Source of the DNA: Escherichia coli
GTDB taxonomy: Bacteria > Pseudomonadota > Gammaproteobacteria > Enterobacterales > Enterobacteriaceae
Assembly (NCBI GenBank): GCA_902500205.1
Contig: GCA_902500205.1_4868.1
Reading direction: 5' to 3' (one strand)
DNA: 64,000 nt
Position numbers and translations under genes: made by a program
The notes under the pieces: model-generated
What the model saw: only the letters and a program-made list of their open reading frames with translations
Databases searched by the model: none
What the model was told of the DNA's origin: nothing
Shown here: piece after piece, positions 360 to 59,580 of the stretch
How positions within the stretch are numbered: position 1 is the first letter of the stretch
How the letters are laid out: every line of letters begins with the position of its first letter

Positions 360-492
360 GACGTTTCATAAGGTACCTTTCAGTGTTAAAAAAATTTCTC
401 GTTTAACGGCCAACTTTACTGTCATATTAAGCCCGCTATGTGGTTTTTGGAATGTTTAGTATGCACCGTTCGCCTACTACGAGGAAACAACC
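360..492. promoter_or_regulatory. Divergent intergenic region between the lipoprotein gene (-) and the 182-aa gene (+); likely carries promoters
   Basis: 133-bp AT-rich non-coding gap between divergently oriented genes; no confident -35/-10 assignment. Confidence 0.3.
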
Positions 493-1080: not shown

Positions 1081-1118
1081 CCTACCTCCCTTCGGGGAGG
1101 TAGGGCCTTTATTTTCTT
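1081..1118. terminator. Bidirectional rho-independent terminator between convergent genes
   Basis: Hairpin cctacctccc-ttcg-gggaggtagg with T-rich tracts on both sides; ends the minus-strand structural operon and the plus-strand 182-aa gene. Confidence 0.75.
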
Positions 1119-1121
1119 TGC

Positions 1122-1793
1122 TTACATGCCGAGTGATTCGGACAATGTTTTTAAACCGGTGTAATCGCGCTTTTCAGCTAACTCACGGATTTGGCGTTTG
1201 TTATCTGCCATTGCTGAGTGCAACACCTGGTCGCGTGCAACAATAGCGCCCAACAACGCTTTACATTGGTCTACTGTAAACGGACTGTGCTTAGTATTCA
1301 GCGTATCGAGCCAGTATTCTGGTGCGGTATCTGCCTGAATGTATTGACCGAGGATGGTACGCGACGATTCATCGGCTTGAAAGTGACTACCTTCAAACTC
1401 GATATAACCATGACGCACATCTTCGTAGCGATGGTCAAGTTCCAACAGCATCTTCTGCACGTCTTCGTAAATGTAACGTGCGGTAGATTTCAGATTCCCG
1501 CGAATTTCGTCGAGGTCAATCTCCAGCACATTAGCAATAAACTCTTTCGTGCGTTTCAATGTGAAGTTAGCTTCAATCTCCGACATCTCATACAGCTTCA
1601 TGCGTGCCAGGGCTTCTTTATCAGACATCCCTTCGATGAGATGGTAATGGAGTAATGCACAAAATCCGGTACGACCCTGATCCTGCGCACCGATTCGTTC
1701 CATGAAATTGCCGTGACGATCAATCGGCAAATCACGCTGGAAATAACGGGCGCGGATCTCTTCGTTCGTTAAGCTTTTGTCAGTAACAGACAT
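1122..1793 (-). CDS. Hypothetical protein (223 aa), last gene of the radical SAM cluster operon
   Basis: ORF track; co-oriented with and overlapping the upstream gene; no motif recognised. Confidence 0.55.
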   Translation of the reverse strand: MSVTDKSLTNEEIRARYFQRDLPIDRHGNFMERIGAQDQGRTGFCALLHYHLIEGMSDKEALARMKLYEMSEIEANFTLKRTKEFIANVLEIDLDEIRGNLKSTARYIYEDVQKMLLELDHRYEDVRHGYIEFEGSHFQADESSRTILGQYIQADTAPEYWLDTLNTKHSPFTVDQCKALLGAIVARDQVLHSAMADNKRQIRELAEKRDYTGLKTLSESLGM

Positions 1794-2335
1794 TCGTCCT
1801 CCTCAATCAGGCCAAGTTCTAACAACAAACCGAAGTCCAGCATCTGGAAGTCCTGATCGAGGTTACCGGCCCACAACAGAGAAATGTTGTGTTGCTCTTC
1901 TTCTTCCAACTGCGGGAGCAGGTGTTCTTCGAAGATTTGACGTTCTGTGTAATAAGCGTCAACCGGGTTATTGGAGCGTAAGTTACGAATACGCATCCGC
2001 GGGAATGACAAGCCCAATGCCACTAAACTTTCAGGACTGGCTTCATCAATAGAGTGACGTAGCAGTTCGATTTTGTGGCGTGGGTATGCAAGCAGTCGCT
2101 TCTCAAAGCCAGGGTTGCGCTTTTCGATTTCCGCGACAGACTCGTGTCCTTTCTCAACGCAGTAGACCGGGATCATCACATTCAGCCCGTATTTAATCAA
2201 CAGGCTTTGGATTTCATCAGTGAAGTCTTCCCCTGCCACAATTGCGTGCACATTGTACAGCTTGCTTTTGCGCAGGAAGCGATCGACCAAGTGCAGTTTA
2301 CGCTTCGTAAAATTGTGAATCAGTATTGACTTCAT
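1769..2335 (-). CDS. Hypothetical protein (about 189 aa), cluster-associated
   Basis: ORF track 1769..2413; start moved to internal Met (MKSILIHNF) which has a GGAG RBS about 7 nt upstream by my reading; no motif recognised. Confidence 0.5.
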   Translation of the reverse strand: MKSILIHNFTKRKLHLVDRFLRKSKLYNVHAIVAGEDFTDEIQSLLIKYGLNVMIPVYCVEKGHESVAEIEKRNPGFEKRLLAYPRHKIELLRHSIDEASPESLVALGLSFPRMRIRNLRSNNPVDAYYTERQIFEEHLLPQLEEEEQHNISLLWAGNLDQDFQMLDFGLLLELGLIEEDECLLLTKA

Positions 2336-3626
2336 TCTGGGCTCCGTTTTGTAATTTTTCTGCTTCAGCACGTTGGCGTACACAACGTGAACAATAGCAC
2401 ATGGATTTATCATGCAAATCTGATGCGCGGGTCGTACCAGTTTTCTGATACCAATATTCCGCCGCCATCAGCTTCGCAGTAGTCCAACCACACTGACGAC
2501 GTTCGGCGTGATACGCTTTACGGTCTTCCAGTGTACCTTCACCGTTTTCGTACGATGCTGCTGCGCAGCTACCGCAACTGTGTTTCATCGGACACCCTAA
2601 ACAGGTTTCTGGGTAGTTGGTGTACTGCGTTTGAATCTCTTCTAACAGCTTACCACCGTCCAGGCTCACAAACTCACGACCGACCAGTTCTGCTACAGCA
2701 GAACGGGAAGTTACCGTGGACATGAAACGGTTACAACCGTAAATCTTGCGATCAAAGCCGAGACAGGTCATGTGCGTCAACGTACCGCAGTACGGTTTCA
2801 GGCGTTCTGGGTCGAGACGAACAGAGTCGTCATGTAAGAGTTTGTCACGCCAATCCGGGTCCCAAGTTGCCATAAAGTTCAGGCCATCCGGGATGATGTG
2901 TGTAATCGTGTTACGCGGGTTGGTGTGCAGACCCTTCTCAATCCAGTAGTCCATCACGTCCATCATCTGGTTCGCGATATCCAACGCCATATGGCGCGGC
3001 AGGATATCTTCGTACGTTACGTTACCAGAGATGGTACCACCGCCGGACATGTCAATTAACGATTTCATGCTGGCGGCATAGTGCGGCAATGTATCGATCG
3101 TAAACGTCGCCTTTACGCCCAGCTCAGCGATGCCAACGCTCTTCAGGTAATTGTAACCGCGTACCGCAGCTTCGTACGACCCTTCACGCGTCGTGGTAAA
3201 GATACGATATTTGTCATGGACTTCAGGTAAACCATCGATGGAGACCCCAATAGACAGTTTGTCTTTCCAGCGCTCGATAATTTCTTTGTTCAGCGGTCGG
3301 TCCAGAAGTGTACCGTTCGTGGAGATACTGAACATATACGGGCGATTGTGTTCTGCGCATAACTTCTCTGCGGTTTCAAAGGCCGCCAAAAGAAGTTTAG
3401 GCTGCATGAACGGCTCACCACCGATGATATCGATGATGACTTCAACGTTCGGGATATCTTTATCGCGCTCGAAACAAGCGTGGATAAAATCAATCACGTC
3501 TGCTACTTTGTTGTTACGCGGATATTTACGCTCGTAGCAGTATTCGCAGTCCAGGTTACATGACAAGTTAGTCACAACCTGATACGTGCGTGGTGTGTAC
3601 TGGATTTGCTGTTCGCTATTACTCAT
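2298..3626 (-). CDS. Radical SAM enzyme with SPASM-type C-terminal domain (442 aa)
   Basis: N-terminal CNLDCEYC (CxxxCxxC radical SAM cluster motif); C-terminal Cys-rich segment CLGCPMKHSCGSCAA and CYCSRC typical of SPASM auxiliary cluster domains; its start overlaps the stop of the upstream radical SAM gene. Confidence 0.85.
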   Translation of the reverse strand: MSNSEQQIQYTPRTYQVVTNLSCNLDCEYCYERKYPRNNKVADVIDFIHACFERDKDIPNVEVIIDIIGGEPFMQPKLLLAAFETAEKLCAEHNRPYMFSISTNGTLLDRPLNKEIIERWKDKLSIGVSIDGLPEVHDKYRIFTTTREGSYEAAVRGYNYLKSVGIAELGVKATFTIDTLPHYAASMKSLIDMSGGGTISGNVTYEDILPRHMALDIANQMMDVMDYWIEKGLHTNPRNTITHIIPDGLNFMATWDPDWRDKLLHDDSVRLDPERLKPYCGTLTHMTCLGFDRKIYGCNRFMSTVTSRSAVAELVGREFVSLDGGKLLEEIQTQYTNYPETCLGCPMKHSCGSCAAASYENGEGTLEDRKAYHAERRQCGWTTAKLMAAEYWYQKTGTTRASDLHDKSMCYCSRCVRQRAEAEKLQNGAQNEVNTDSQFYEA

Positions 3627-4533
3627 TGTTCGCCGCCCGTTTACGCTTAGCAGAAATTACACGGTTGATGTAGTTATACGCATCAACGCCGATAGAACGC
3701 GCCAGGCGATTACAGCCGACTTCCAATATCTCTGGCGCGTTCTGAATTTGCTCCTGCGTACCGTCGGCGTTAAGCCACAGCACTTCACTGCACGTGTTGC
3801 ACTCGGTATCGAACATTTTACTGATCGCAAGCCCACATTCAGAATCGTTCTGCATGTTAAGGCGTTCGATATTGTCGAGTATTTTCCAATACCCGTACAT
3901 GAAGTTCATGACGTGGTCTGGCGATAACGGTTTCGGCATCATCGCATCAAACAGCAACGACATACCACCTGGACGGTAATGATAGATTGCTCGGTGCAGC
4001 TCGATGAAATCTTCGTACCAGCGTTTATCGCCTAACTGGTCACGCGTCATCACACCCCAGGTGTAATAGTTGTCCAGCTCGTACAGCACTTCCAGCGCTT
4101 CGTGATTACCACCGTTTACAAAGTTCATAAACGGACGTTCCGACTTCTTGTAGCCGTCAATGGACACAAAGATAAGGTCGAACTGTTTCAGCAACGGCAG
4201 ATGTGATTTACGCATCTTTAAACCGTTGGTGTACATGTGATGACGGAGGTTCGGATGAGACTCCTTCAACTCATTCACGAAGTCTTCAATCTTGCGCTGC
4301 GCTAACAGCGGCTCACCGCCCGTCCAATGAATCTCACCGATATCCGGATTCTTCTCTAAAATCGAGAGAATCTCTTCACGTTGAAACTCACGAGAAGTAT
4401 CTTCTCTATCCATGTAATAAGCCCCTCCACAGAAGCTACAGTCTAAGTTACACTTAGAAGTTGCGACAACCGACAGAATTGACGGTTTGTCGTACAGTTC
4501 AGACGAGATCCTGGATTCTACTTGATCTGTCAT
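3619..4533 (-). CDS. Radical SAM enzyme (about 304 aa), second maturase-like protein
   Basis: CNLDCSFCGG radical SAM motif; C-terminal Cys motifs (ECG...ECNTC...GC) suggest a partial or twitch-like auxiliary domain. Track start 4569 is probably a non-ATG codon; internal ATG (MTDQVES) with GGAG RBS preferred. Confidence 0.8.
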   Translation of the reverse strand: MTDQVESRISSELYDKPSILSVVATSKCNLDCSFCGGAYYMDREDTSREFQREEILSILEKNPDIGEIHWTGGEPLLAQRKIEDFVNELKESHPNLRHHMYTNGLKMRKSHLPLLKQFDLIFVSIDGYKKSERPFMNFVNGGNHEALEVLYELDNYYTWGVMTRDQLGDKRWYEDFIELHRAIYHYRPGGMSLLFDAMMPKPLSPDHVMNFMYGYWKILDNIERLNMQNDSECGLAISKMFDTECNTCSEVLWLNADGTQEQIQNAPEILEVGCNRLARSIGVDAYNYINRVISAKRKRAANNE

Positions 4534-4555
4534 TGCAGGTTGCTCCAGTATATTT

Positions 4556-5443
4556 TTAAATATAATCAATGGCGAATAAAGGATCTTCGTCTACATTAGC
4601 GCCAGGCACCAGTAACATCGGGTCGTGATAGGCAGCTAAAATTTTGTTCAGGTCGGCATGTCTTTCGTTCAAGCGTTTCAAATCGGCCAACGTAACCGAA
4701 CGACTACGAATCTCAGAAACAGCTTCTGCTTCTTCTTTCGTTAAATCCACCTTCGTTAAGAGGAAGCTTACCAGCTTACTCAAATCCGCTTCTGTCGCCG
4801 GGTAATCCCCATATCGGGTTTGAACCAGGTGTTGCATCCACGGCTTACGAATACGTTTGGTGATTTCGAAATCGTCAGTCAGCGCATACCAGACAGAACG
4901 CTTTTTATCCCACACGAACTTATAGCTATACGCCATCATGTCCGCTAAACGGGTGATGCCGAGTTCTTTATATCCCTCGATATCGATGTACGGTTCGGTG
5001 TCGAAATACGTTTCCGTATCGGCAGGTACCAGTACAAAGTAGTAAGGGAATGAGCCCAGATAGTCCGGACTCCACCAACGGCGCGCCATCGGTTTTGCTT
5101 CGAGTTCGTCAAACGGTGTAAACATCAGTTCTAAATCGACACTGTTGTTCAAAATCCCTTCACTGAAGAAATACTTACCGTCGACTAACACGCCACGAGA
5201 GTTACCATCGCCGTTAAAGATAACGATGGCCTCTGCAACCATATCACGGATCTTAAACGTATTTTCTACGGTGTAGTTCTTCTTGTCGGTCAAGAAGCGA
5301 CCACGAACCTTTGGCCACTCACCAGGAATCTGTGCAATCAGTCTGACTTTGTCAGCGAGGTGTGCACGCACCGAATCTGGGGAAGATAGATGCAGCGGGT
5401 GGTTGAATGTGGTTTTATACGCAAGATGCAAATCGTTTTTCAT
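4556..5443 (-). CDS. Hypothetical protein (295 aa) between the precursor genes and the radical SAM genes
   Basis: ORF track; GGAG RBS upstream; no recognisable motif; position suggests an accessory or recognition role. Confidence 0.55.
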   Translation of the reverse strand: MKNDLHLAYKTTFNHPLHLSSPDSVRAHLADKVRLIAQIPGEWPKVRGRFLTDKKNYTVENTFKIRDMVAEAIVIFNGDGNSRGVLVDGKYFFSEGILNNSVDLELMFTPFDELEAKPMARRWWSPDYLGSFPYYFVLVPADTETYFDTEPYIDIEGYKELGITRLADMMAYSYKFVWDKKRSVWYALTDDFEITKRIRKPWMQHLVQTRYGDYPATEADLSKLVSFLLTKVDLTKEEAEAVSEIRSRSVTLADLKRLNERHADLNKILAAYHDPMLLVPGANVDEDPLFAIDYI

Positions 5444-5465
5444 TTAATACTCCGAACGTTTTCTG

Positions 5466-5672
5466 TTATCGATTCCCCGCTCCACGGCTACAGCTTCCGC
5501 TGCAGGACCAGCTACACCCACCATTACAGTTATAGTGAGAAAGCGGTAAGCCAGCCAGGTTATTTGTGGTCGACACGGTGCCCTGGTTAGCGATATAGTT
5601 GTTTGCCTGTGCGGTTGTAATGTAACCTTCTGCCGTAACGAGACGGTTTCGAATAGTCTTGAGACTGATCAC
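5466..5672 (-). CDS. Cys-rich precursor-like peptide A (68 aa)
   Basis: GTG start with GGAGG RBS by my reading; N-terminus MISLKTIRNRL resembles paralogs B and C; short C-terminal core SHYNCNGGCSWSCSGSCS. Confidence 0.6.
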   Translation of the reverse strand: MISLKTIRNRLVTAEGYITTAQANNYIANQGTVSTTNNLAGLPLSHYNCNGGCSWSCSGSCSRGAGNR

Positions 5673-5687
5673 ATAAGCCTCCGTCGG

Positions 5688-6092
5688 TTAGGAGTTAGGA
5701 CCTGAACAACCACCAGAGCACGCACCTGAGCAGTTTGCGGAGCAGGATTTACCACAACCCCCAGAACAGCTGCCTGTGCACGTGCCGCTACAACCACCAG
5801 AGCACGAAGAGCTACAGCCCGTGCAGCTGCTGCTACAGCCTGATACACAGTTTGCCGAACAAGTCGACCCACAACCGCCCGTAGCAGACCCAGTACATCC
5901 GCCAGAACAACTCGAGCAACTAAAAGAGCATGTGCCACCACAGTCATAGTGCGAACGGCCTTGACCTGCGAACAAGTCGGCGTTATTCGTAGCTTTATTG
6001 CGAATGTAGTTTTGCACATTCGTGGTGTTCTTTAAAGCGTTTGCATCGATCGCGTTTAATCGGTTATTCAGTTCTTTTAATCCAATTGCCAT
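5688..6092 (-). CDS. Cys-rich precursor-like peptide B (134 aa)
   Basis: Leader-like N-terminus MAIGLKELNNRL; junction motif SHYDCGGTCSFSC followed by about 20 Cys in C-x3-C repeats with S/G/T/A/N spacers. Confidence 0.7.
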   Translation of the reverse strand: MAIGLKELNNRLNAIDANALKNTTNVQNYIRNKATNNADLFAGQGRSHYDCGGTCSFSCSSCSGGCTGSATGGCGSTCSANCVSGCSSSCTGCSSSCSGGCSGTCTGSCSGGCGKSCSANCSGACSGGCSGPNS

Positions 6093-6360
6093 TTAATCCC
6101 CCTTAGCGACCTGAACAGCCACCGGAGCAGGCTCCGGAACAACTGGAAGAACATGAGCCACCGCAACCACCTGTGCAGTTACCGGTACAGCTACTACTGC
6201 AACCACCAGAACAACCAGAGCAACCAGAACAGTTACCGCCACACGTCGAAGAACAGCTACCGATACAAGAAGCAGAACAGCTTCCTGAACAGCTCGAACA
6301 GCCATGCGAGCAACCGTTAGAGCACGTCCAAGAACATGTCCCGCCGCAATCTAGCTGTGT
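5700..6360. repeat. Low-complexity codon repeat tracts (Cys/Ser/Gly codons) inside precursor genes B and C
   Basis: Reiterated short codon units create long spurious ORFs on the opposite strand and in other frames (track ORFs 5669..6019, 6093..6305, 6173..6508). Confidence 0.6.
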
Positions 6361-6495
6361 TTTCGTCCAACCCCCAAATCGGTCTGCCGCGTTATGGGCT
6401 TTAGAGGCCACTTGCGCGTCGATACGGGGGCCTGTCGCCATGTTAGCTTCGACTATCTGGACGCGGTTTCTGACGTCTTTAATAGATATCGCCAT
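6103..6495 (-). CDS. Cys-rich precursor-like peptide C (130 aa)
   Basis: Leader-like N-terminus MAISIKDVRNRV; junction motif DCGGTCSWTC followed by about 21 Cys in C-x3-C repeats. Confidence 0.7.
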   Translation of the reverse strand: MAISIKDVRNRVQIVEANMATGPRIDAQVASKAHNAADRFGGWTKTQLDCGGTCSWTCSNGCSHGCSSCSGSCSASCIGSCSSTCGGNCSGCSGCSGGCSSSCTGNCTGGCGGSCSSSCSGACSGGCSGR

Positions 6496-6516
6496 TACGC
6501 TTCCTTAAAAAGTAGA

Positions 6517-6553
6517 ACGAGCGGACTATGTCCATAAACATAGTCCGGCTCGT
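6517..6553 (-). terminator. Strong hairpin (terminator or attenuator or RNA processing site) between the fibre operon and the precursor genes
   Basis: About 14-bp stem with one bulge (acgagcggactatg / catagtccggctcgt), followed on the transcript by a U-rich stretch and then the RBS of precursor C. Confidence 0.45.
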
Positions 6554-6560
6554 AAACAAG

Positions 6561-7763
6561 TTACTTAGTACCCGCTTCAGCTTGAACATCGTCGCGCGAG
6601 GTGAGGTTGTTGTTAACGTGAACAGCAGCCTGCACAACACCGCCATACTGTTTATGGAGGTAATTCGGGTGTGGGTTATCCGCAGCCGCATGGTTCGCCA
6701 GATTCTGGTTTGCCTGCGAAATTGCGTTGGTGTTGTTTACAACCTGAGTTTTAAGACTGTTGATTTGTCCTTGCAGGTTATCAATTTGCTGTTGGAAGTC
6801 TTTGCCCTGATTCTCAAGATCCGTGACACGCTGATTTGTTTCATTCAGCGCAGACTGAAGATCGTTAACCTTCTTCTGTAATTGCAACACCAGAGAATTA
6901 AGGTTAGCTAATGCTAACGACATTTTCTGGTAATTTTGAGCAACCACGTTAAGCTGGTCGTTCCACGCGGCTAACGAAGCCACAATTGCATCGATGCGTT
7001 GCCCCAACGCTGTGTCTGCTGCTCTTAAGTCGCCGATATCTTTGATAGTGGCGTCAATGGCAGTCTGTACACTTTGAATCAGAGCACGAATCTCCGTCTC
7101 CGTCAGGCCATTAACCTGATGAATGTCGAGATTGTGTACGTTACCTTCGGCGTTGATGTGGGTATTTAAGGCGTCGAGGAAGTCGTTTTTCAGACCACCC
7201 AGAATACCTTTAATTTCTTCCAGCTGTACTGCAGAGCCGGAGTTAATCGCATCTTTAATCCCCGCGAGTACGGTAATGATATACTCAAAACCGTAGATAT
7301 CGCCAAGGTCTTTATACGTCGGTGCGGACGGGAACGTATCGGGTACGTTCCGAAGATCCTTGAAGTCCACCACGCGGTCTTCAATTTTCAACGACGCAAT
7401 CGCTTGTCGGATGCCTTCGACGTTCGCGGACTGAAAACCACCGACAACTTGCGCAGAGACTTCGATATCAGTAGGAATGGCCGTGTTAGTTACCACCACA
7501 CCCATGACCACTTCGCGGTTCTTGGTCATTTTCTGATATGCAGTATGTGCAAAAATCAGCTCGTAGTCTGTACCGCGTTTGTACGGGTAGACACCTGGTT
7601 TATTCGCAGCCGCCAAGCGGAAGGTATCCGCGTAGAAAGCTCCGTCAGGAAATGCAAAAGCCCGGTTAACTTTACCAGAACCTAACGTAATACGCCGCGT
7701 AACGGCGTTCGACGTTAATGTCCCGGTAAGGTCGAGCGGGTACTGATAAATGATTTCGGCCAT
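6561..7763 (-). CDS. Tail-fibre-like protein (about 400 aa) with coiled-coil region
   Basis: Shares the N-terminal module (..RGTDYEL..) with the three large fibre proteins; central heptad-like Q/N/L-rich segment; C-terminal NPHPNYLH motif. Start moved to internal ATG with GGAG RBS. Confidence 0.65.
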   Translation of the reverse strand: MAEIIYQYPLDLTGTLTSNAVTRRITLGSGKVNRAFAFPDGAFYADTFRLAAANKPGVYPYKRGTDYELIFAHTAYQKMTKNREVVMGVVVTNTAIPTDIEVSAQVVGGFQSANVEGIRQAIASLKIEDRVVDFKDLRNVPDTFPSAPTYKDLGDIYGFEYIITVLAGIKDAINSGSAVQLEEIKGILGGLKNDFLDALNTHINAEGNVHNLDIHQVNGLTETEIRALIQSVQTAIDATIKDIGDLRAADTALGQRIDAIVASLAAWNDQLNVVAQNYQKMSLALANLNSLVLQLQKKVNDLQSALNETNQRVTDLENQGKDFQQQIDNLQGQINSLKTQVVNNTNAISQANQNLANHAAADNPHPNYLHKQYGGVVQAAVHVNNNLTSRDDVQAEAGTK

Positions 7764-12994: not shown

Positions 12995-13027
12995 TGCAAA
13001 CACTCCTAATCTGTAATAAAACGGAGA

Positions 13028-13088
13028 CCGCCCTCCCAATAACGGAAGGGCGGTTTACCTACGGACTACCCGCCCGTAGGCAGTCCGT
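13028..13088 (-). terminator. Inter-fibre-gene structured region, candidate partial terminator
   Basis: Two adjacent GC-rich inverted repeats (accgccctcc/ggaagggcggt and cctacgg/ccgtagg, with an alternative acggact/agtccgt pairing), then a U-rich stretch on the minus-strand transcript. Confidence 0.4.
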
Positions 13089-20200: not shown

Positions 20201-20946
20201 ATCCAATCGATCAACTCGCCTGGGTTTAACGTTGTTTCCGGTGGAATGCTCGGTAAACGGTGTTTTACCGCTAACGAATACGCATTGAACGTCGTGTTCT
20301 GGTAAGATAACGAATAACGACGACGAGACGCGTTATACGTGTAGCCGCCAGTACCGTCGTACGTCGCATACTGCTCGGATGTGATAAGCGTGACACCGGC
20401 GCGATATTGAAGGTCTAACGTGTTACGAGCAATCGGGTCAACGCGACTGATCGCTTCACCGAGCTTAGCGCCAACCGCAACAATGGCTTCCATCAACTCG
20501 GATTCGCCACGCCAGTTTTCCCAGTCGAACTTAATATCGACCGGTGGGAAATATAAATCCCCAATGACGTTATCCCATTGGCAGTCCACGGGATAGCGAT
20601 CTTTATTCGCTTCTCGTTCTGCGGCGATCATTTCTGCAGTGGCTTCACCGATGCCAATTGCGTGGTAATCGAGTGTAAAGCCACTCTGATATTTCGGGTT
20701 GGTAATCCACACACCACCATGACAAACATGGCCAGTGCGTGCCATGCCCGTAACGTACGCATGGGTGATGACGTAATCATCACCTAATGTTAATTTCTTG
20801 CCGCCACTCTTGACCACCAGGGATGTGGTATAAAAGGGGGCGTGTGCGGGGAACAACATCCGGTACTTAGTACCGATCGGCGTTACCGCTTCACCGGTCT
20901 GCATATTCCCCGGTTCTTGATAGTGCGGGTCAGGGACGACAGCCAT
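17233..20946 (-). CDS. Large tail fibre or baseplate-proximal fibre protein (1237 aa)
   Basis: Shared N-terminal module (LGDDYVITH); AHTHVPRKDNPHRDSWGAIRAL and GHTHTPAALGIKRATTTEFGLVQFGT motifs; GGAG RBS upstream; first gene of the minus-strand operon. Confidence 0.7.
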   Translation of the reverse strand: MAVVPDPHYQEPGNMQTGEAVTPIGTKYRMLFPAHAPFYTTSLVVKSGGKKLTLGDDYVITHAYVTGMARTGHVCHGGVWITNPKYQSGFTLDYHAIGIGEATAEMIAAEREANKDRYPVDCQWDNVIGDLYFPPVDIKFDWENWRGESELMEAIVAVGAKLGEAISRVDPIARNTLDLQYRAGVTLITSEQYATYDGTGGYTYNASRRRYSLSYQNTTFNAYSLAVKHRLPSIPPETTLNPGELIDWMLCYANGGTSILRLQLKQRAIYLTLTTAIGSGSSNYSYTLTTGLTDTELAGDIELSVVRREGNGVYDITVKTSKQTVNYSFNVDNPPSEFAPGYQKTDVAKWLKFKSGVNLNWWAGENDYVQIRSLPGAPAPDVNNDVYQLLVKYHQIVDKLYRDAPAHTHVPRKDNPHRDSWGAIRALENNGIASDATLVYGKTQPQLTDYVNNLLPKLSTLANKLLRLPAAAQSINGTFGMKPGLTSITSAVGTDESEGVGAQFTVDPKVIRFIGRDSQTVNAGNNPITWQGGANQLILYPDSRGLEFNGKKLLDPTTVGPYLPGNESGGDGLFYGTSTATVTINGNGIQSVPFICTFVPPESDDLGLMAVRLLATEFGDREDLAATPALIKKLDQQFTGKLVAVKSYINDMPLTSSIYIDKTNFGLSNVQNIPDVQLPISPLQRAELDKYAVVGHTHTPAALGIKRATTTEFGLVQFGTAVDDATLALDGGEVIRQADAITEIEKVAKTVDSGASINIIRYGLPGTDIIENGITYTDWMVTIKANDYFVGREYKVPLSTFNLAELFPATHEDAEFGVYVDAAGDDGKYIIYENPNTAETETMTKIGSIITSETGVVFVEIRNVTRLGEFRELGEHIEDDNAHIRRGMTQAEFGFTYGTGGPVWSTGAPGTKRIDADWRYAQASSYTPMLKADYDPAADKWTFKTTSLSVTDYRFVHNTFPMFQNNGITATWTPLTATADSVLETVIGCCHHSATFMHRISVLVARTAGRITTPGGVSTYAGIAVNYGRAAQVVIGLNGVTGAGHDWTALNPSVRFSHARTADGISFVGTINIDSKTINFELTLTATTKTLKYTLQSTGESWTEDLSTRLRPDYIDLTKLITDPSTPIYHGVGGLFSSDTEARLTYANLNTMPTKNRYYATFLDYAINYSGLNRARFFTGVVDAGSTINEMNSAMCNYSYSSFRPVDTGKIPLVAHPSKMMTFNPKNTSGRTLIIRD

Positions 20947-21013
20947 TTTACACTCCTTTTCTCTGAGGGCGTCGAGTTCATACTATGACCCGAATCCTTA
21001 GAGGAAACAGCCA

Positions 21014-22283: not shown

Positions 22284-22325
22284 ACCCTACTCCCAACGGG
22301 AGTAGGGTACCTATATCTTTTTTTG
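22284..22325 (+). terminator. Rho-independent terminator
   Basis: Hairpin ccctactccc-aacg-ggagtaggg followed by a T-run. Confidence 0.7.
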
Positions 22326-22337
22326 CCTGCAGGCCGA

Positions 22338-22547
22338 TTACGCGTTTACGTAATAGATGGCGTTGCCGAACATTTTGTTGTTGCCGCCACAAGCGGTAAC
22401 TTTAAATGCTACGCCGCCTTCAGCTTCGGCTTTCTTAGCCAGCGCTTCGGTAACTTCGGTAACGGTGCTCAGTCCAGAAACCTGAACGGTGCCTGCTTCT
22501 ACCAGACCAGAAACGTCGCTGCCTGCGGTGATTTCACGAATGCTCAT
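22338..22547 (-). CDS. Small hypothetical protein (69 aa)
   Basis: ORF with GGAG RBS upstream by my reading; Ala/Gly/Val-rich; function unknown. Confidence 0.45.
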   Translation of the reverse strand: MSIREITAGSDVSGLVEAGTVQVSGLSTVTEVTEALAKKAEAEGGVAFKVTACGGNNKMFGNAIYYVNA

Positions 22548-22641
22548 TTACTTATCTCCATTAACAAATGATAGCAGAAGAACCCTATGTTCAACTACTT
22601 GTACTTCGAGGCATATTAACTGCCCCGACTCGTAAATTAGT

Positions 22642-31089: not shown

Positions 31090-31121
31090 GGAACCCTTCG
31101 GGGTTCCATTTCTTCTTTTTT
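31090..31121 (+). terminator. Rho-independent terminator
   Basis: Hairpin ggaaccc-ttcg-gggttcc followed by a T-run. Confidence 0.7.
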
Positions 31122-31174
31122 ACGCATGACCTTTTGGATATGAACGACTAATACTTTCTCATTAGAAGGCAAAC

Positions 31175-35324: not shown

Positions 35325-35579
35325 ATGCCTCACTATGAGTGGGGTATTTTTACGCGAGGAGTGCTATTTATGTTTCACCGTCCTGGGTTTTCAGCTTTAA
35401 ACACCGATGTCTGTTGGGCTGAGTACGAACGGGTGAAGGAGTTCTTACCCGTAAATCCTAAACACATCAACGTGGGTACTATCGGGCGTGTTGTGTTTGA
35501 TGATACTCCGCTGAGTACGTGTATTAAAGCTGCGCTTGGTACGCTGCCGGCGTCTATAGTTATTGAGGAATTAAAATGA
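35325..35579 (+). CDS. Hypothetical protein (84 aa or shorter)
   Basis: ORF track; start uncertain. Confidence 0.45.
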   Translation: MPHYEWGIFTRGVLFMFHRPGFSALNTDVCWAEYERVKEFLPVNPKHINVGTIGRVVFDDTPLSTCIKAALGTLPASIVIEELK

Positions 35580-40175: not shown

Positions 40176-40214
40176 CCTACCTACTCCCAAGGGAGTAGGT
40201 AGTTCTTTTTTTTC
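40176..40214. terminator. Bidirectional rho-independent terminator
   Basis: Hairpin cctacctactccc-aa-gggagtaggtagg with T-runs on both sides; placed between convergent genes. Confidence 0.7.
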
Positions 40215-43257: not shown

Positions 43258-43296
43258 CCCTCTTACCTTCGGGTAAGAGGGGATTTCCTTTTTTAC
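43258..43296 (+). terminator. Rho-independent terminator
   Basis: Hairpin ccctcttacc-ttcg-ggtaagaggg followed by a T-run. Confidence 0.7.
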
Positions 43297-43340
43297 GTTA
43301 GTAGTTAATAGTGTGATATATAATCTCGTGGAGAGTTGAA

Positions 43341-44060
43341 ATGACCTATCCTAAAATTCTGCCTGTTTTAACACCAACCGTGGTTGTTGGGACGGACTTA
43401 GAGACCCTGGCTTTACGTCCAGATGCCTACATCTTAACGTTGGCAAACGTGGCATTCGATGTTCCGACAATGAAAATGATCGGTTCATGTTACCACAAAA
43501 TCGACCCCAATGATGCAAAAGCAAAAGAAATCTTCTACATCGATCCACAAACGGTCGGTTATTGGGAAGGTAAAGGCGACCCCGAATATGCACCGAGCGA
43601 GAAAGCACGTATTGAAGCGTTTTCTGGGACCACTCCACTGCCAGAAGCACTGTGGGCGGCCAAAAAATGGTTGGATGATCTGGGCAACGTGAAAATGGTT
43701 ATCACCATGCGCGGTCCCGATTTCGATGCTCCAATTCTGATGAACGCATTTGCACAGTGCGATATCCCGCCGGGCAAGTACCGCAAGTTTTCTATACTGG
43801 ACTCTGACCGGACTGCAGAACGTATTGCATATGCGTTTGGCCTGGAACCGAACTGGCACGCAGAAGCGCACCATTGGACCCGTGGCAAAGAAGCGTACGA
43901 GCATAACGCTAACTTTGATGCTGCGAAGGAAGCGTATTCTACGGCACGCATCTATCATTTGGCCCTGGTCGCGCGTACGTACGGCTTCGAACGCATGTTA
44001 GAAGCCCACCGCGAAATGTGCACAGGTGAATACATTCCACCGCAGTTGCGAGGAGAATAA
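43341..44060 (+). CDS. DEDDh-type 3'-5' exonuclease-like protein (239 aa), tentative
   Basis: N-terminal VVVGTDLETLAL (D-x-E Exo I-like) and C-terminal HNANFDA (H-x-A-x-x-D Exo III-like) motifs. Confidence 0.5.
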   Translation: MTYPKILPVLTPTVVVGTDLETLALRPDAYILTLANVAFDVPTMKMIGSCYHKIDPNDAKAKEIFYIDPQTVGYWEGKGDPEYAPSEKARIEAFSGTTPLPEALWAAKKWLDDLGNVKMVITMRGPDFDAPILMNAFAQCDIPPGKYRKFSILDSDRTAERIAYAFGLEPNWHAEAHHWTRGKEAYEHNANFDAAKEAYSTARIYHLALVARTYGFERMLEAHREMCTGEYIPPQLRGE

Positions 44061-45574
44061 TGAAAGACGTCGACGTAGCGGTTATTTATACCGATGGTAG
44101 TCATACTGAGTCCCCGAAAGGTTCGGGGGCTGGTATTCATGGTTATTTATTCAACAACGGAGATTTGGAAGACAGTCAGGCTTATAGCCATCCGGGTGTT
44201 TCAGAACGGATTACCACTGTTGGATACAAAAAAGTGCCGCAGGATGTGAAGTGTCCGGAGTTGCCGGACACCGTTCAATTTGTCGACGCCGTTATTCCCG
44301 TTCCGAAAGAGTTCTACTCAGATGTGGGCGAGTTAATCGCCTTCATCACGTTGTTTGAGAACGCGCCCTTCCGCGCGAAGAACTACATCATCTACGTGGA
44401 TGCCAGTTACGTTGTAAACACTTTTAACGAGTGGATAGACGGCTGGCATAAACGTGGTTGGGTTCGTGCTGACGGTACTCCGCTGGCGAACAAAGAACTT
44501 ATTGTTCGTATCTGGGAAATCAAACAGCAGATGAAAAAAGAAGGACGGGGTGTTAAGGTTATCAAAATCAAAGGACACTCCGGCCACTACGGTAACGACC
44601 GGGCGGACGAATTGGCTAGAAAAGGTTCAGCTATCACAGCGACCAACGACGGCGTTCCATATCAGCCGTACTGGTCGAAAGATGAGTTGCCTGCATCCGC
44701 GGAACCCGAGCCCATCGCCGCTGGGATGAACCTTGCGGCATATCCGCCGATTTGTACGGTTAAATATTGCTATCCATTGGTGAACGAGGACCATCCTACT
44801 GTAAAAGTGAAAGATGAAACTTTCTATTACATGTTTGGTGGTAACCATGCAAAGAACAAGGACGACTTGGTGTTTATTGGGAAAATGATTCCTGATGCAC
44901 ACTTTTCCGTAATGTTCACTAAACAACCGTGGGATAACATCTACACGATTGTAAACACCCACGCCGCCCTGGCATGGAAAGATACACCGAAGATGCGGCA
45001 GTATGATCCAATCGGTGTTGTTAACAATGAGTTCGTTAAACGTAAGAAGTTCGTTGATGTGGCAGGTGATGGATTACCGGCAGACAAGATGCATTTCAGT
45101 GGGGAGGATTCTAATGTCTGGTTCTTTGAAGACCTGGCCATCTCCAGAATGCTTCGCCCGCCCTTATTGTCGTACCGTGCGCTGGATATTCGTGACGAAC
45201 TCGCTACAACGTTGCGAGATGTTCTGCATCAGGAAAAGGGTTATGTCTTAAACGATATTACCGACTTGCTATTCGACGACAAAGGTAAACCTGTCAAGGA
45301 ATACTACCGTAGCGTCGATAAGTCAATAACGTTAAAGATTGACTTTCCGATGGGTAAACGACCTGTCTCGGTTATTTTGACTCGCGGTATCGATATTCCA
45401 TCGCGTACGGAAATCAACCGTATTAAAGAACCGGAAGGCCGTTATTACATCGCGGTGTGTCGTCCTGAAAAATACTACATCCGTTACTTCTTAATCTATA
45501 TCGGTAAAGAGTATCATGGGTTGTGGTGTGCGTATTACGCAAACCGTCGCATACTGCGAGAAGAAGAGGTGTAA
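44060..45574 (+). CDS. RNase HI-domain protein with about 350-aa C-terminal extension (504 aa)
   Basis: N-terminal VAVIYTDGS and downstream KIKGHSGHYGNDRADELARKG match RNase H catalytic motifs; stop/start overlap (TAATG) with the upstream exonuclease gene. Confidence 0.8.
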   Translation: MKDVDVAVIYTDGSHTESPKGSGAGIHGYLFNNGDLEDSQAYSHPGVSERITTVGYKKVPQDVKCPELPDTVQFVDAVIPVPKEFYSDVGELIAFITLFENAPFRAKNYIIYVDASYVVNTFNEWIDGWHKRGWVRADGTPLANKELIVRIWEIKQQMKKEGRGVKVIKIKGHSGHYGNDRADELARKGSAITATNDGVPYQPYWSKDELPASAEPEPIAAGMNLAAYPPICTVKYCYPLVNEDHPTVKVKDETFYYMFGGNHAKNKDDLVFIGKMIPDAHFSVMFTKQPWDNIYTIVNTHAALAWKDTPKMRQYDPIGVVNNEFVKRKKFVDVAGDGLPADKMHFSGEDSNVWFFEDLAISRMLRPPLLSYRALDIRDELATTLRDVLHQEKGYVLNDITDLLFDDKGKPVKEYYRSVDKSITLKIDFPMGKRPVSVILTRGIDIPSRTEINRIKEPEGRYYIAVCRPEKYYIRYFLIYIGKEYHGLWCAYYANRRILREEEV

Positions 45575-49988: not shown

Positions 49989-49997
49989 AATAAAGCC

Positions 49998-50038
49998 TAC
50001 CCACTCCCCTTACGGGAGTGGGTAATGCTTATTTTTTT
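49998..50038. terminator. Bidirectional rho-independent terminator
   Basis: Hairpin tacccactccc-cttacg-ggagtgggta with a long T-run; lies between convergent genes. Confidence 0.7.
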
Positions 50039-50794: not shown

Positions 50795-50892
50795 TCTATC
50801 AACCTCGAATATATAAGGGATTGGGCTACATAGTAAGTCTTTTACGTATCACCCAAACCTTATGTACGAGAACTGCAAAAAGGTAACACCTG

Positions 50893-59111: not shown

Positions 59112-59115
59112 GTTG

Positions 59116-59153
59116 TACCCTCTCCTTCGGGGGAGGGTATCTTCATTTTTTAT
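59116..59153 (+). terminator. Rho-independent terminator
   Basis: Hairpin taccctctcc-ttcg-ggggagggta followed by a T-run. Confidence 0.7.
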
Positions 59154-59532: not shown

Positions 59533-59580
59533 TTTACGGCCACGGCTGTACGTATGTAAAAGACCTCAAGGAGAACTATA

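Follow-up and report, generated by a model that had tools for sequence, protein, structure and literature searches.

In the early promoters of coliphage N4, which are used by its virion RNA polymerase, the key bases are located in the loop of an inverted-repeat DNA hairpin. These hairpins consist of 5-7 bp with 3-nt loops, they serve a single-subunit T7-like enzyme, and every promoter of this class depends on one. Hairpins are also known between the genes of phage T7, where they are sites of RNase III processing.

The promoters used by the nvRNAP of phage phiKZ have an essential TATG core, the G of which is position +1, and the beta-like subunit of the enzyme contacts the TATG of the non-template strand. 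The phiKZ 'middle' promoters carry an AAanTTACc box at about -24, and purified nvRNAP does not use them in vitro. The mapped promoter P78M reads AAAATTACC-N14-TATG, i.e. TTAC-N15-TATG. With respect to termination, the intrinsic terminators of phiKZ are described by the motif BCCYCCCCHWWDGGGRRGGBYTTATKYYGT (Putzeys et al. 2024, PMC10914365).

The Salmonella jumbo phage SPN3US is a member of the phiKZ-related, nucleus-forming phages. By annotation only, it encodes multisubunit virion and non-virion polymerases, since several split beta/beta' genes of its genome are annotated as "RNA polymerase beta subunit". A literature search found no mapping of start sites, promoters or terminators in phages of the SPN3US group, and nothing on the radical SAM gene cluster that these phages carry.

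The DNA analysed here, called the window, is a stretch of 64,000 nucleotides. The region around the hairpin described below is 98-99% identical to SPN3US and its close relatives (genus Seoulvirus), and its remoter matches are Erwinia jumbo phages and belong to four other genera. At the sequence level, the window is a close relative of SPN3US. The offset between the coordinates of the window and those of SPN3US shifts by ~980 nt between about 45.6 kb and 50.8 kb; therefore, the window phage would have roughly 1 kb that is absent from SPN3US in that interval.

All the genes near the hairpin are on the minus strand (Table 1). The hairpin lies where the first-pass annotation had placed it, between the stop codon of a 400-aa gene and the RBS of the first of three small ORFs, in a spacer of 65 nt. 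The three small ORFs (window 5466-6495) are conserved and are located just upstream of two radical SAM genes; their C-terminal halves are rich in Cys, Ser and Gly and show CxxxC-type repeats. None of the three matches Pfam. In the SPN3US RefSeq record the first small ORF is unannotated and positions 5684-6019 are annotated in a frame other than that of the 134-aa ORF, while opposite-strand ORFs are annotated at this locus in several Erwinia phage records. The genes of the proposed downstream unit are tightly packed, with gaps of 10-22 nt among the first four, and a hairpin scan of the window detected no strong minus-strand hairpin from 1104 to 6517.

Table 1. Position of the hairpin, of the signals predicted within it and of the surrounding genes and terminators. 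Coordinates are those of the window unless SPN3US is named.
Feature	Position	Strand	Remarks
1727-aa protein gene		-	Near the hairpin
400-aa virion structural gene (coiled-coil, fibre-like)	6561-7763	-	Upstream of the hairpin
TAA stop codon of the 400-aa gene	6563-6561	-	7 nt upstream of the stem
Promoter-like box TTTAC, predicted at -23 to -19	6552-6556	-	AC invariant; fits the genome consensus; TTAC box and spacing those of P78M
Conserved hairpin (6 bp, bulged C6547, 10 bp, loop UAUG)	6517-6553	-	Seen in the sequence, in folds and in every relative; arms covary
TATG in the hairpin loop	6533-6536	-	Invariant in all orthologues
RBS of the first small ORF (AAGGAAG)	6500-6506	-	AAGG invariant in the orthologue alignment
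ATG of the first small ORF	6495-6493	-	
First Cys/Ser/Gly-rich small ORF, 130 aa	6103-6495	-	First gene of the proposed downstream unit; start codon and RBS conserved
Second Cys/Ser/Gly-rich small ORF, 134 aa	5688-6092	-	
Third Cys/Ser/Gly-rich small ORF, 68 aa	5466-5672	-	
Remainder of the proposed downstream unit	1123-6092	-	The second and third Cys-rich ORFs, an ORF of 295 aa, the two radical SAM genes and another two ORFs
Canonical bidirectional terminator CCTACCTCCC-TTCG-GGGAGGTAGG with T-rich tails	1081-1104	both	Would end the downstream unit
Canonical terminators	1081-1104, 13027-13054, 22284-22308, 40177-40202, 43258-43281, 49997-50025, 59115-59140		Many bidirectional
Tandem terminator-promoter modules	SPN3US 94154-94211, SPN3US 100101-100159, window 31120-31142		The last preceded by a weaker hairpin, visible in the upstream sequence of SPN3US

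On the sense strand, read from 6553 to 6517, the hairpin is 5'-ACGAGC-C-GGACUAUGUU-UAUG-GACAUAGUCC-GCUCGU-3'. It is formed by 16 pairs (6 + 10, one U.G among them), a single bulged C and a 4-nt loop; the first-pass annotation was right about the bulge but had put the stem at about 14 bp. The short U-rich stretch that it described past the stem is also present (UCUACUUUUU, at 6516-6507 on the minus strand) and is followed by the RBS and the ATG, which are separated from the stem by 10 and 21 nt, respectively. RNA folding, the check that it had suggested, yields a stable structure: a segment of 51 nt folds at -23.7 kcal/mol (z = -6.0), an energy reached by 0 of 200 shuffled sequences, and in a context of 86 nt the value is -28.8 kcal/mol (z = -3.2). 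The same 51 nt folded as DNA give -15.0 kcal/mol (z = -7.05). The hairpin ranks 7th among the 889 candidates of the window and is among the most stable of the SPN3US genome, where only 0.07% of 3000 random 44-nt segments match its stability. A consensus promoter/terminator scan of the window missed it, because bulges are not modelled and the tail past the unbulged inner stem is too T-poor. A consensus scan found no sigma-70-like promoter near the hairpin, and sigma-70 logic is probably irrelevant in this group of phages.

The spacers that follow the orthologues of the 400-aa gene were compared in 14 GenBank phages and 18 IMG/VR loci. A hairpin is found at the same place in all 32 (-13 to -26 kcal/mol), which represent Seoulvirus, Erskinevirus, Machinavirus, Wellingtonvirus and Derbicusvirus as well as uncultured metagenomic viral contigs. 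The 5' arms are ~45% identical between clades and the stems still pair; most of their positions show three to five kinds of standard pair. Native hairpins have a mean energy of -19.0 kcal/mol, versus -8.6 kcal/mol for chimeras in which the arms were swapped between clades. Standard consensus-structure tools failed on these sequences: RNAalifold returned no pairs on a MAFFT alignment of the orthologues, since the structures of the clades do not align in register, and a covariance model based on the Erskine/Machinavirus copies missed those of Seoulvirus while collecting noise. Therefore, covariation was judged with custom scripts that folded each sequence, tabulated the pairs and built the arm-swap chimeras. 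We conclude that the hairpin is a real, conserved and functional feature, and not a product of chance.

Stem sequences turn over, but a few positions do not. In 21 distinct aligned orthologues the only invariant columns are the AC of a (T/A)(T/A)AC box, the TATG, one G-C pair and the RBS/start. The box is always at the 5' foot of the hairpin and the TATG in its loop, and the distance between both is always 15 nt, or 16 nt in Wellingtonvirus. The tails found in the relatives are UUCUUAUUUUUU, UUCUUAUU or UUUUUUUAUU, and in Erskine/Machinavirus UUUUUUAUU stands immediately after the stem. Most orthologues carry a tail of the UUAUU type; the tail of the window is interrupted and devoid of UUAU, a degraded form of it. 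The Derbicusvirus clade keeps the hairpin with almost no U-tract (only UU).

The invariant positions correspond to a promoter-like motif, TTTACG-N13-T-TATG, with TTTACG at 6556-6551. Its box occupies the 5' foot of the stem, so that the A and C of TTTAC double as the first two stem bases. By analogy with phiKZ, transcription is predicted to begin at the G in position 6533, which would give a 5' UTR of 38 nt. A GGAC-AUA-GUCC mini-hairpin can be drawn at the 5' terminus of the predicted transcript; as it has no obvious counterpart in the sequences of the relatives, it was dropped as a real element.

The whole SPN3US genome was assembled and scanned for TTAC...TATG. About half of the 37 matches fall within the 7% of the DNA that is non-coding, and nearly all of these have a spacing of 15 and the sense orientation, most of them being located 24-100 nt 5' of start codons. 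In this non-coding DNA there are 15 copies of TTAC-N15-TATG, versus 0-2 at each of the other spacings between 8 and 25. After shuffling, the non-coding DNA yields 0.85 +/- 0.9 copies, i.e. the real DNA is ~17-fold enriched. The genome-wide consensus is wwTTTACR-N13-D-TATG, and the focal site fits it. The window contains 14 matches to TTAC-N14-17-TATG versus 7.5 +/- 2.7 expected. The spacing-15 peak recurs in the loci of the relatives. The Erwinia phage Asesino keeps orthologous promoter-like sites ahead of two genes, the SMC-like one and that of gp192. In the 3 kb flanking the 400-aa gene on each side, no motif match other than the focal site is common to all the relatives. The TATG core, the spacing of the TTAC box and the recurrence throughout the genome mark TTAC-N15-TATG in SPN3US, judged as sequence, as a real intergenic promoter-like signal. 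Five more intergenic, sense-oriented copies of TTAC-N15-17-TATG are present in the window, at 416-440 (+), 22612-22635 (-), 31120-31142 (+), 50842-50864 (+) and 59534-59556 (+).

The first-pass annotation had held that a promoter could not be accommodated downstream of the hairpin. This is literally so but misleading, as the promoter-like motif lies inside the hairpin itself, and a separate transcript for the small ORFs would not have to arise by processing, as had been proposed.

We give about even chances to the reading in which a terminator and a promoter are nested in one another at this site, making the cluster of Cys-rich ORFs and radical SAM genes a separate transcription unit. The spacer would then carry two overlapping signals. 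The first would be a promoter of the phiKZ type for a phage polymerase, composed of the TTTAC box, a spacer of exactly 15 nt and the TATG, with initiation at the G of the loop and a leader of 38 nt. The second would be a terminator-like inverted repeat, whose 5' arm is the promoter spacer and whose 3' arm corresponds to the first transcribed bases, followed by the U-rich tail. Transcripts of the upstream late structural genes would contain both arms, and in them the hairpin would cause termination, or else define or protect the 3' end. RNA initiated in the loop would lack the 5' arm; therefore, it would form no hairpin and would read on into the operon of the Cys-rich ORFs and radical SAM genes up to the terminator at 1081-1104. 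Nested in this way, the two signals would uncouple the two gene sets, the downstream cluster being driven by its own promoter. The hairpin is most likely a stop signal for the tail-fibre genes, with the start signal of the next operon contained in the foot of its stem and in its loop; that transcripts begin and end there, and which polymerase acts, is what we infer from these features.

Several observations go against the nested arrangement. The U-tract of the window is interrupted, the stem and loop are unlike those of canonical terminators, and the Derbicusvirus copies are nearly devoid of a U-tract. In phiKZ, the TTAC box is that of the 'middle' promoters, left unused by purified nvRNAP in vitro, and its combination with TATG is rare. 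Moreover, an inverted repeat of 16 bp extending from -20 to +17 might be a hindrance rather than a help to initiation. The public contigs that encode the first small ORF were checked for transcript-like ends, and all of them span the site.

A promoter could also be the only signal present, the dyad acting on the DNA as a cruciform, as a non-template hairpin showing the TATG or as the site of a dimeric regulator, in order to tune initiation. We regard this as unlikely, although it shares with the nested arrangement all the evidence for the promoter motif. It would be in agreement with the stability of the hairpin as DNA (z = -7), with the pocket of the phiKZ beta-like subunit that binds the non-template TATG, and with the Derbicus clade, in which the hairpin exists in the absence of a U-tract. 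However, a strong hairpin is present at only 2 of the 18 promoter-like sites of SPN3US, the second one is not conserved, and neither P119L nor P78M of phiKZ has a dyad around its TATG. Therefore, the hairpin is a locus-specific addition and not a part of the promoter. That it might be a general feature of the promoter class was rejected, 16 of the 18 copies having no strong hairpin, and the same count goes against a hairpin-dependent promoter of N4-like logic, in which every member of the class would have one. A sequence-specific regulator is disfavoured by the arms, which differ even inside one genus. Besides, in 18 of 20 orthologues the fold of the sense strand equals or exceeds that of the antisense strand in stability (means of -18.8 versus -15.6 kcal/mol) because of G.U pairs. 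This asymmetry is a sign of selection acting on the sense strand as nucleic acid, in the simplest case as RNA, and, since the template-strand arm pairs worse, it disfavours a cruciform. The conserved UUAUU tail would also be left unexplained.

A particular form of this idea, very improbable in our opinion, is that the non-template strand folds on supercoiled or melted DNA and presents the loop TATG in single-stranded form to the beta-like subunit of a multisubunit polymerase. If true, this would be a structure-presented promoter like those of N4, but for a cellular-type RNA polymerase, and it would provide one answer to how a TATG of 4 bp confers specificity.

Other combinations of hairpins and TATG sequences are found in these genomes. 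In SPN3US (72640-72680; L036 22640-22680, outside the window), a promoter-like copy that follows the major head protein gene is located within the hairpin GGGCAC-U-GGGU-AUGA-ACCC-GUGCCC, with ATG in the loop; this hairpin is not conserved in the relatives, although several genera have W-W-A-C-N15-TATG past the head gene. At window 22606-22635 (-) a promoter-like copy coincides with the inverted repeat TCGGGGCA-GTTAATA-TGCCTCGA, its TATG straddling the loop and the 3' arm. This copy is upstream of a small gene starting at 22547, and in the Asesino orthologue a weak repeat of 5 bp is all that is found. The hairpin ATGCCTCAC-TATGA-GTGGGGTAT at 35325-35347 (+) resembles the focal layout, with TATG in the loop followed by TTTTT, an RBS and an ATG at 35370, and has no TTAC box at the right distance. 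The palindrome TCATACTATGA (20975-20990) is situated between divergent genes starting at 20946 (-) and 21014 (+); as it shows TATG on both strands, it could be a back-to-back pair of TATG-only (late-type) promoters.

The SPN3US genome contains ~60 canonical terminators of the phiKZ style, in which a C-rich arm ending in CTCC(C), a tetraloop and a G-rich arm (GGGAG...) are followed by the tail TTTATTTT. Several of them run directly into a promoter copy, their T-tract leading into TTTTTAC. Two adjacent strong hairpins (-26 and -25 kcal/mol) are located at window 13027-13082 (-), directly upstream of the 1727-aa gene; the second one is a canonical terminator whose tail passes into TTTTATTAC, with no TATG at promoter spacing. 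The focal hairpin shares with intrinsic terminators the presence of a stable stem-loop (-23.7 kcal/mol) soon after a stop codon, 7 nt past the TAA in this case. Its stem (GGACUAUGUU/GACAUAGUCC), its UAUG loop and its tail, which lacks TTAT, place it outside the canonical CTCCC-tetraloop-GGGAG plus TTTATTT class.

These data bear on the possibility that the hairpin is a plain intrinsic terminator, or a 3'-end stabiliser, of the fibre-gene transcript, the boxes not being a promoter and the small ORFs being expressed by read-through only. The position of a stable hairpin with a U-rich tail just past the stop, the better folding of the sense strand and the UUAUU tail of the relatives, which matches that of the canonical terminators of the genome and of phiKZ, are all in favour of it. 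Nevertheless, it is decidedly unlikely, as it explains neither why the TATG and the AC of the box are invariant at a fixed spacing of 15/16 nt while the stem between them turns over, nor the ~17-fold excess of the exact bipartite motif in non-coding DNA. Moreover, the loops of the true terminators of this genome are of other types, such as TTCG, CGAA or GTAAG.

It is quite improbable that the hairpin is an RNA processing or stability element, cut in the stem by an enzyme of the RNase III type or beside it by RNase E, or blocking a 3' exonuclease, which would set the ratio between fibre and small-ORF messages. A structure conserved at the RNA level between two gene sets would suit such a role, and phage-encoded ribonucleases are annotated in SPN3US in the region equivalent to window 43339-45572. 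However, the sequence showed none of the features of known processing sites, the Rfam 15 covariance models gave no match in window 6300-6800 at E up to 1, and the invariant promoter boxes would remain unaccounted for. A bulged stem of 16 bp is also short for a classical RNase III substrate. Finally, a neutral palindrome without function has nothing in its favour except that short inverted repeats are common, and it is practically ruled out by the 0 of 200 shuffles that reach the energy of the hairpin and by conservation with compensatory change across five genera.

The first-pass suggestion of an attenuator is half right: termination or attenuation is plausible for a stable and conserved hairpin that has a U-rich tail and lies on the transcript strand between two gene sets, but a regulated attenuator finds no support, since no alternative RNA structure was seen.

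If the nested terminator and promoter are real, the Cys-rich small ORFs would be transcribed autonomously together with the two radical SAM enzymes, as a unit running from 6533 to about 1100 that is insulated from the late tail-fibre operon instead of being its read-through appendage. The terminator would be invisible to the transcripts of its own promoter, which could make it a compact insulator part for phage engineering. The consensus wwTTTACR-N13-D-TATG can be tested in SPN3US-like jumbo phages of Salmonella and Erwinia, and its identical spacing ties it to the middle and late elements of phiKZ. The main value of the analysis resides in the promoter consensus that it exposes and in the redefinition of the downstream cluster as a candidate transcription unit of its own.

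Among the known systems, phiKZ promoters, P78M in particular, share with the focal site the coding-strand TATG, the TTAC box exactly 15 nt upstream, the location upstream of genes and the presence of split beta/beta' polymerase genes in the phage, and P78M has the very geometry of the focal motif. However, the two boxes of phiKZ for the most part mark distinct classes and are rarely combined, whereas their combination constitutes a major class in SPN3US, with 15 copies. A TTAC-N15-TATG spacing peak was not seen in a 50-kb sample of phiKZ, P78M being the sole match; therefore, the link to phiKZ is one of shared boxes and geometry, not of identical class structure. The phiKZ promoters examined also differ in having no long dyad around the TATG. 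The terminators of phiKZ are alike in being stem-loops just past a stop codon with a U-rich tail, which includes UUAU(U) in most focal orthologues, and unlike in that the focal stem is bulged and not C-rich/G-rich, its loop is UAUG and the window tail has no UUAU.

In the early promoters of N4 the key bases are also exposed in a hairpin loop, but a dyad of the focal type is restricted to 2 of 18 sites. The RNase III hairpins of T7 are likewise conserved intergenic RNA stem-loops with irregular stems that part messages of different fates, although the focal hairpin is shorter and contains promoter boxes. The closest counterparts within the same genome are the tandem terminator-promoter modules (Table 1), which also place both signals at a transcription-unit boundary. 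In these modules the signals stand side by side, whereas the focal hairpin is nested in the promoter, with the predicted start in its loop. The arrangement is, therefore, a compact combination of two known kinds of signal and not a new class of mechanism.
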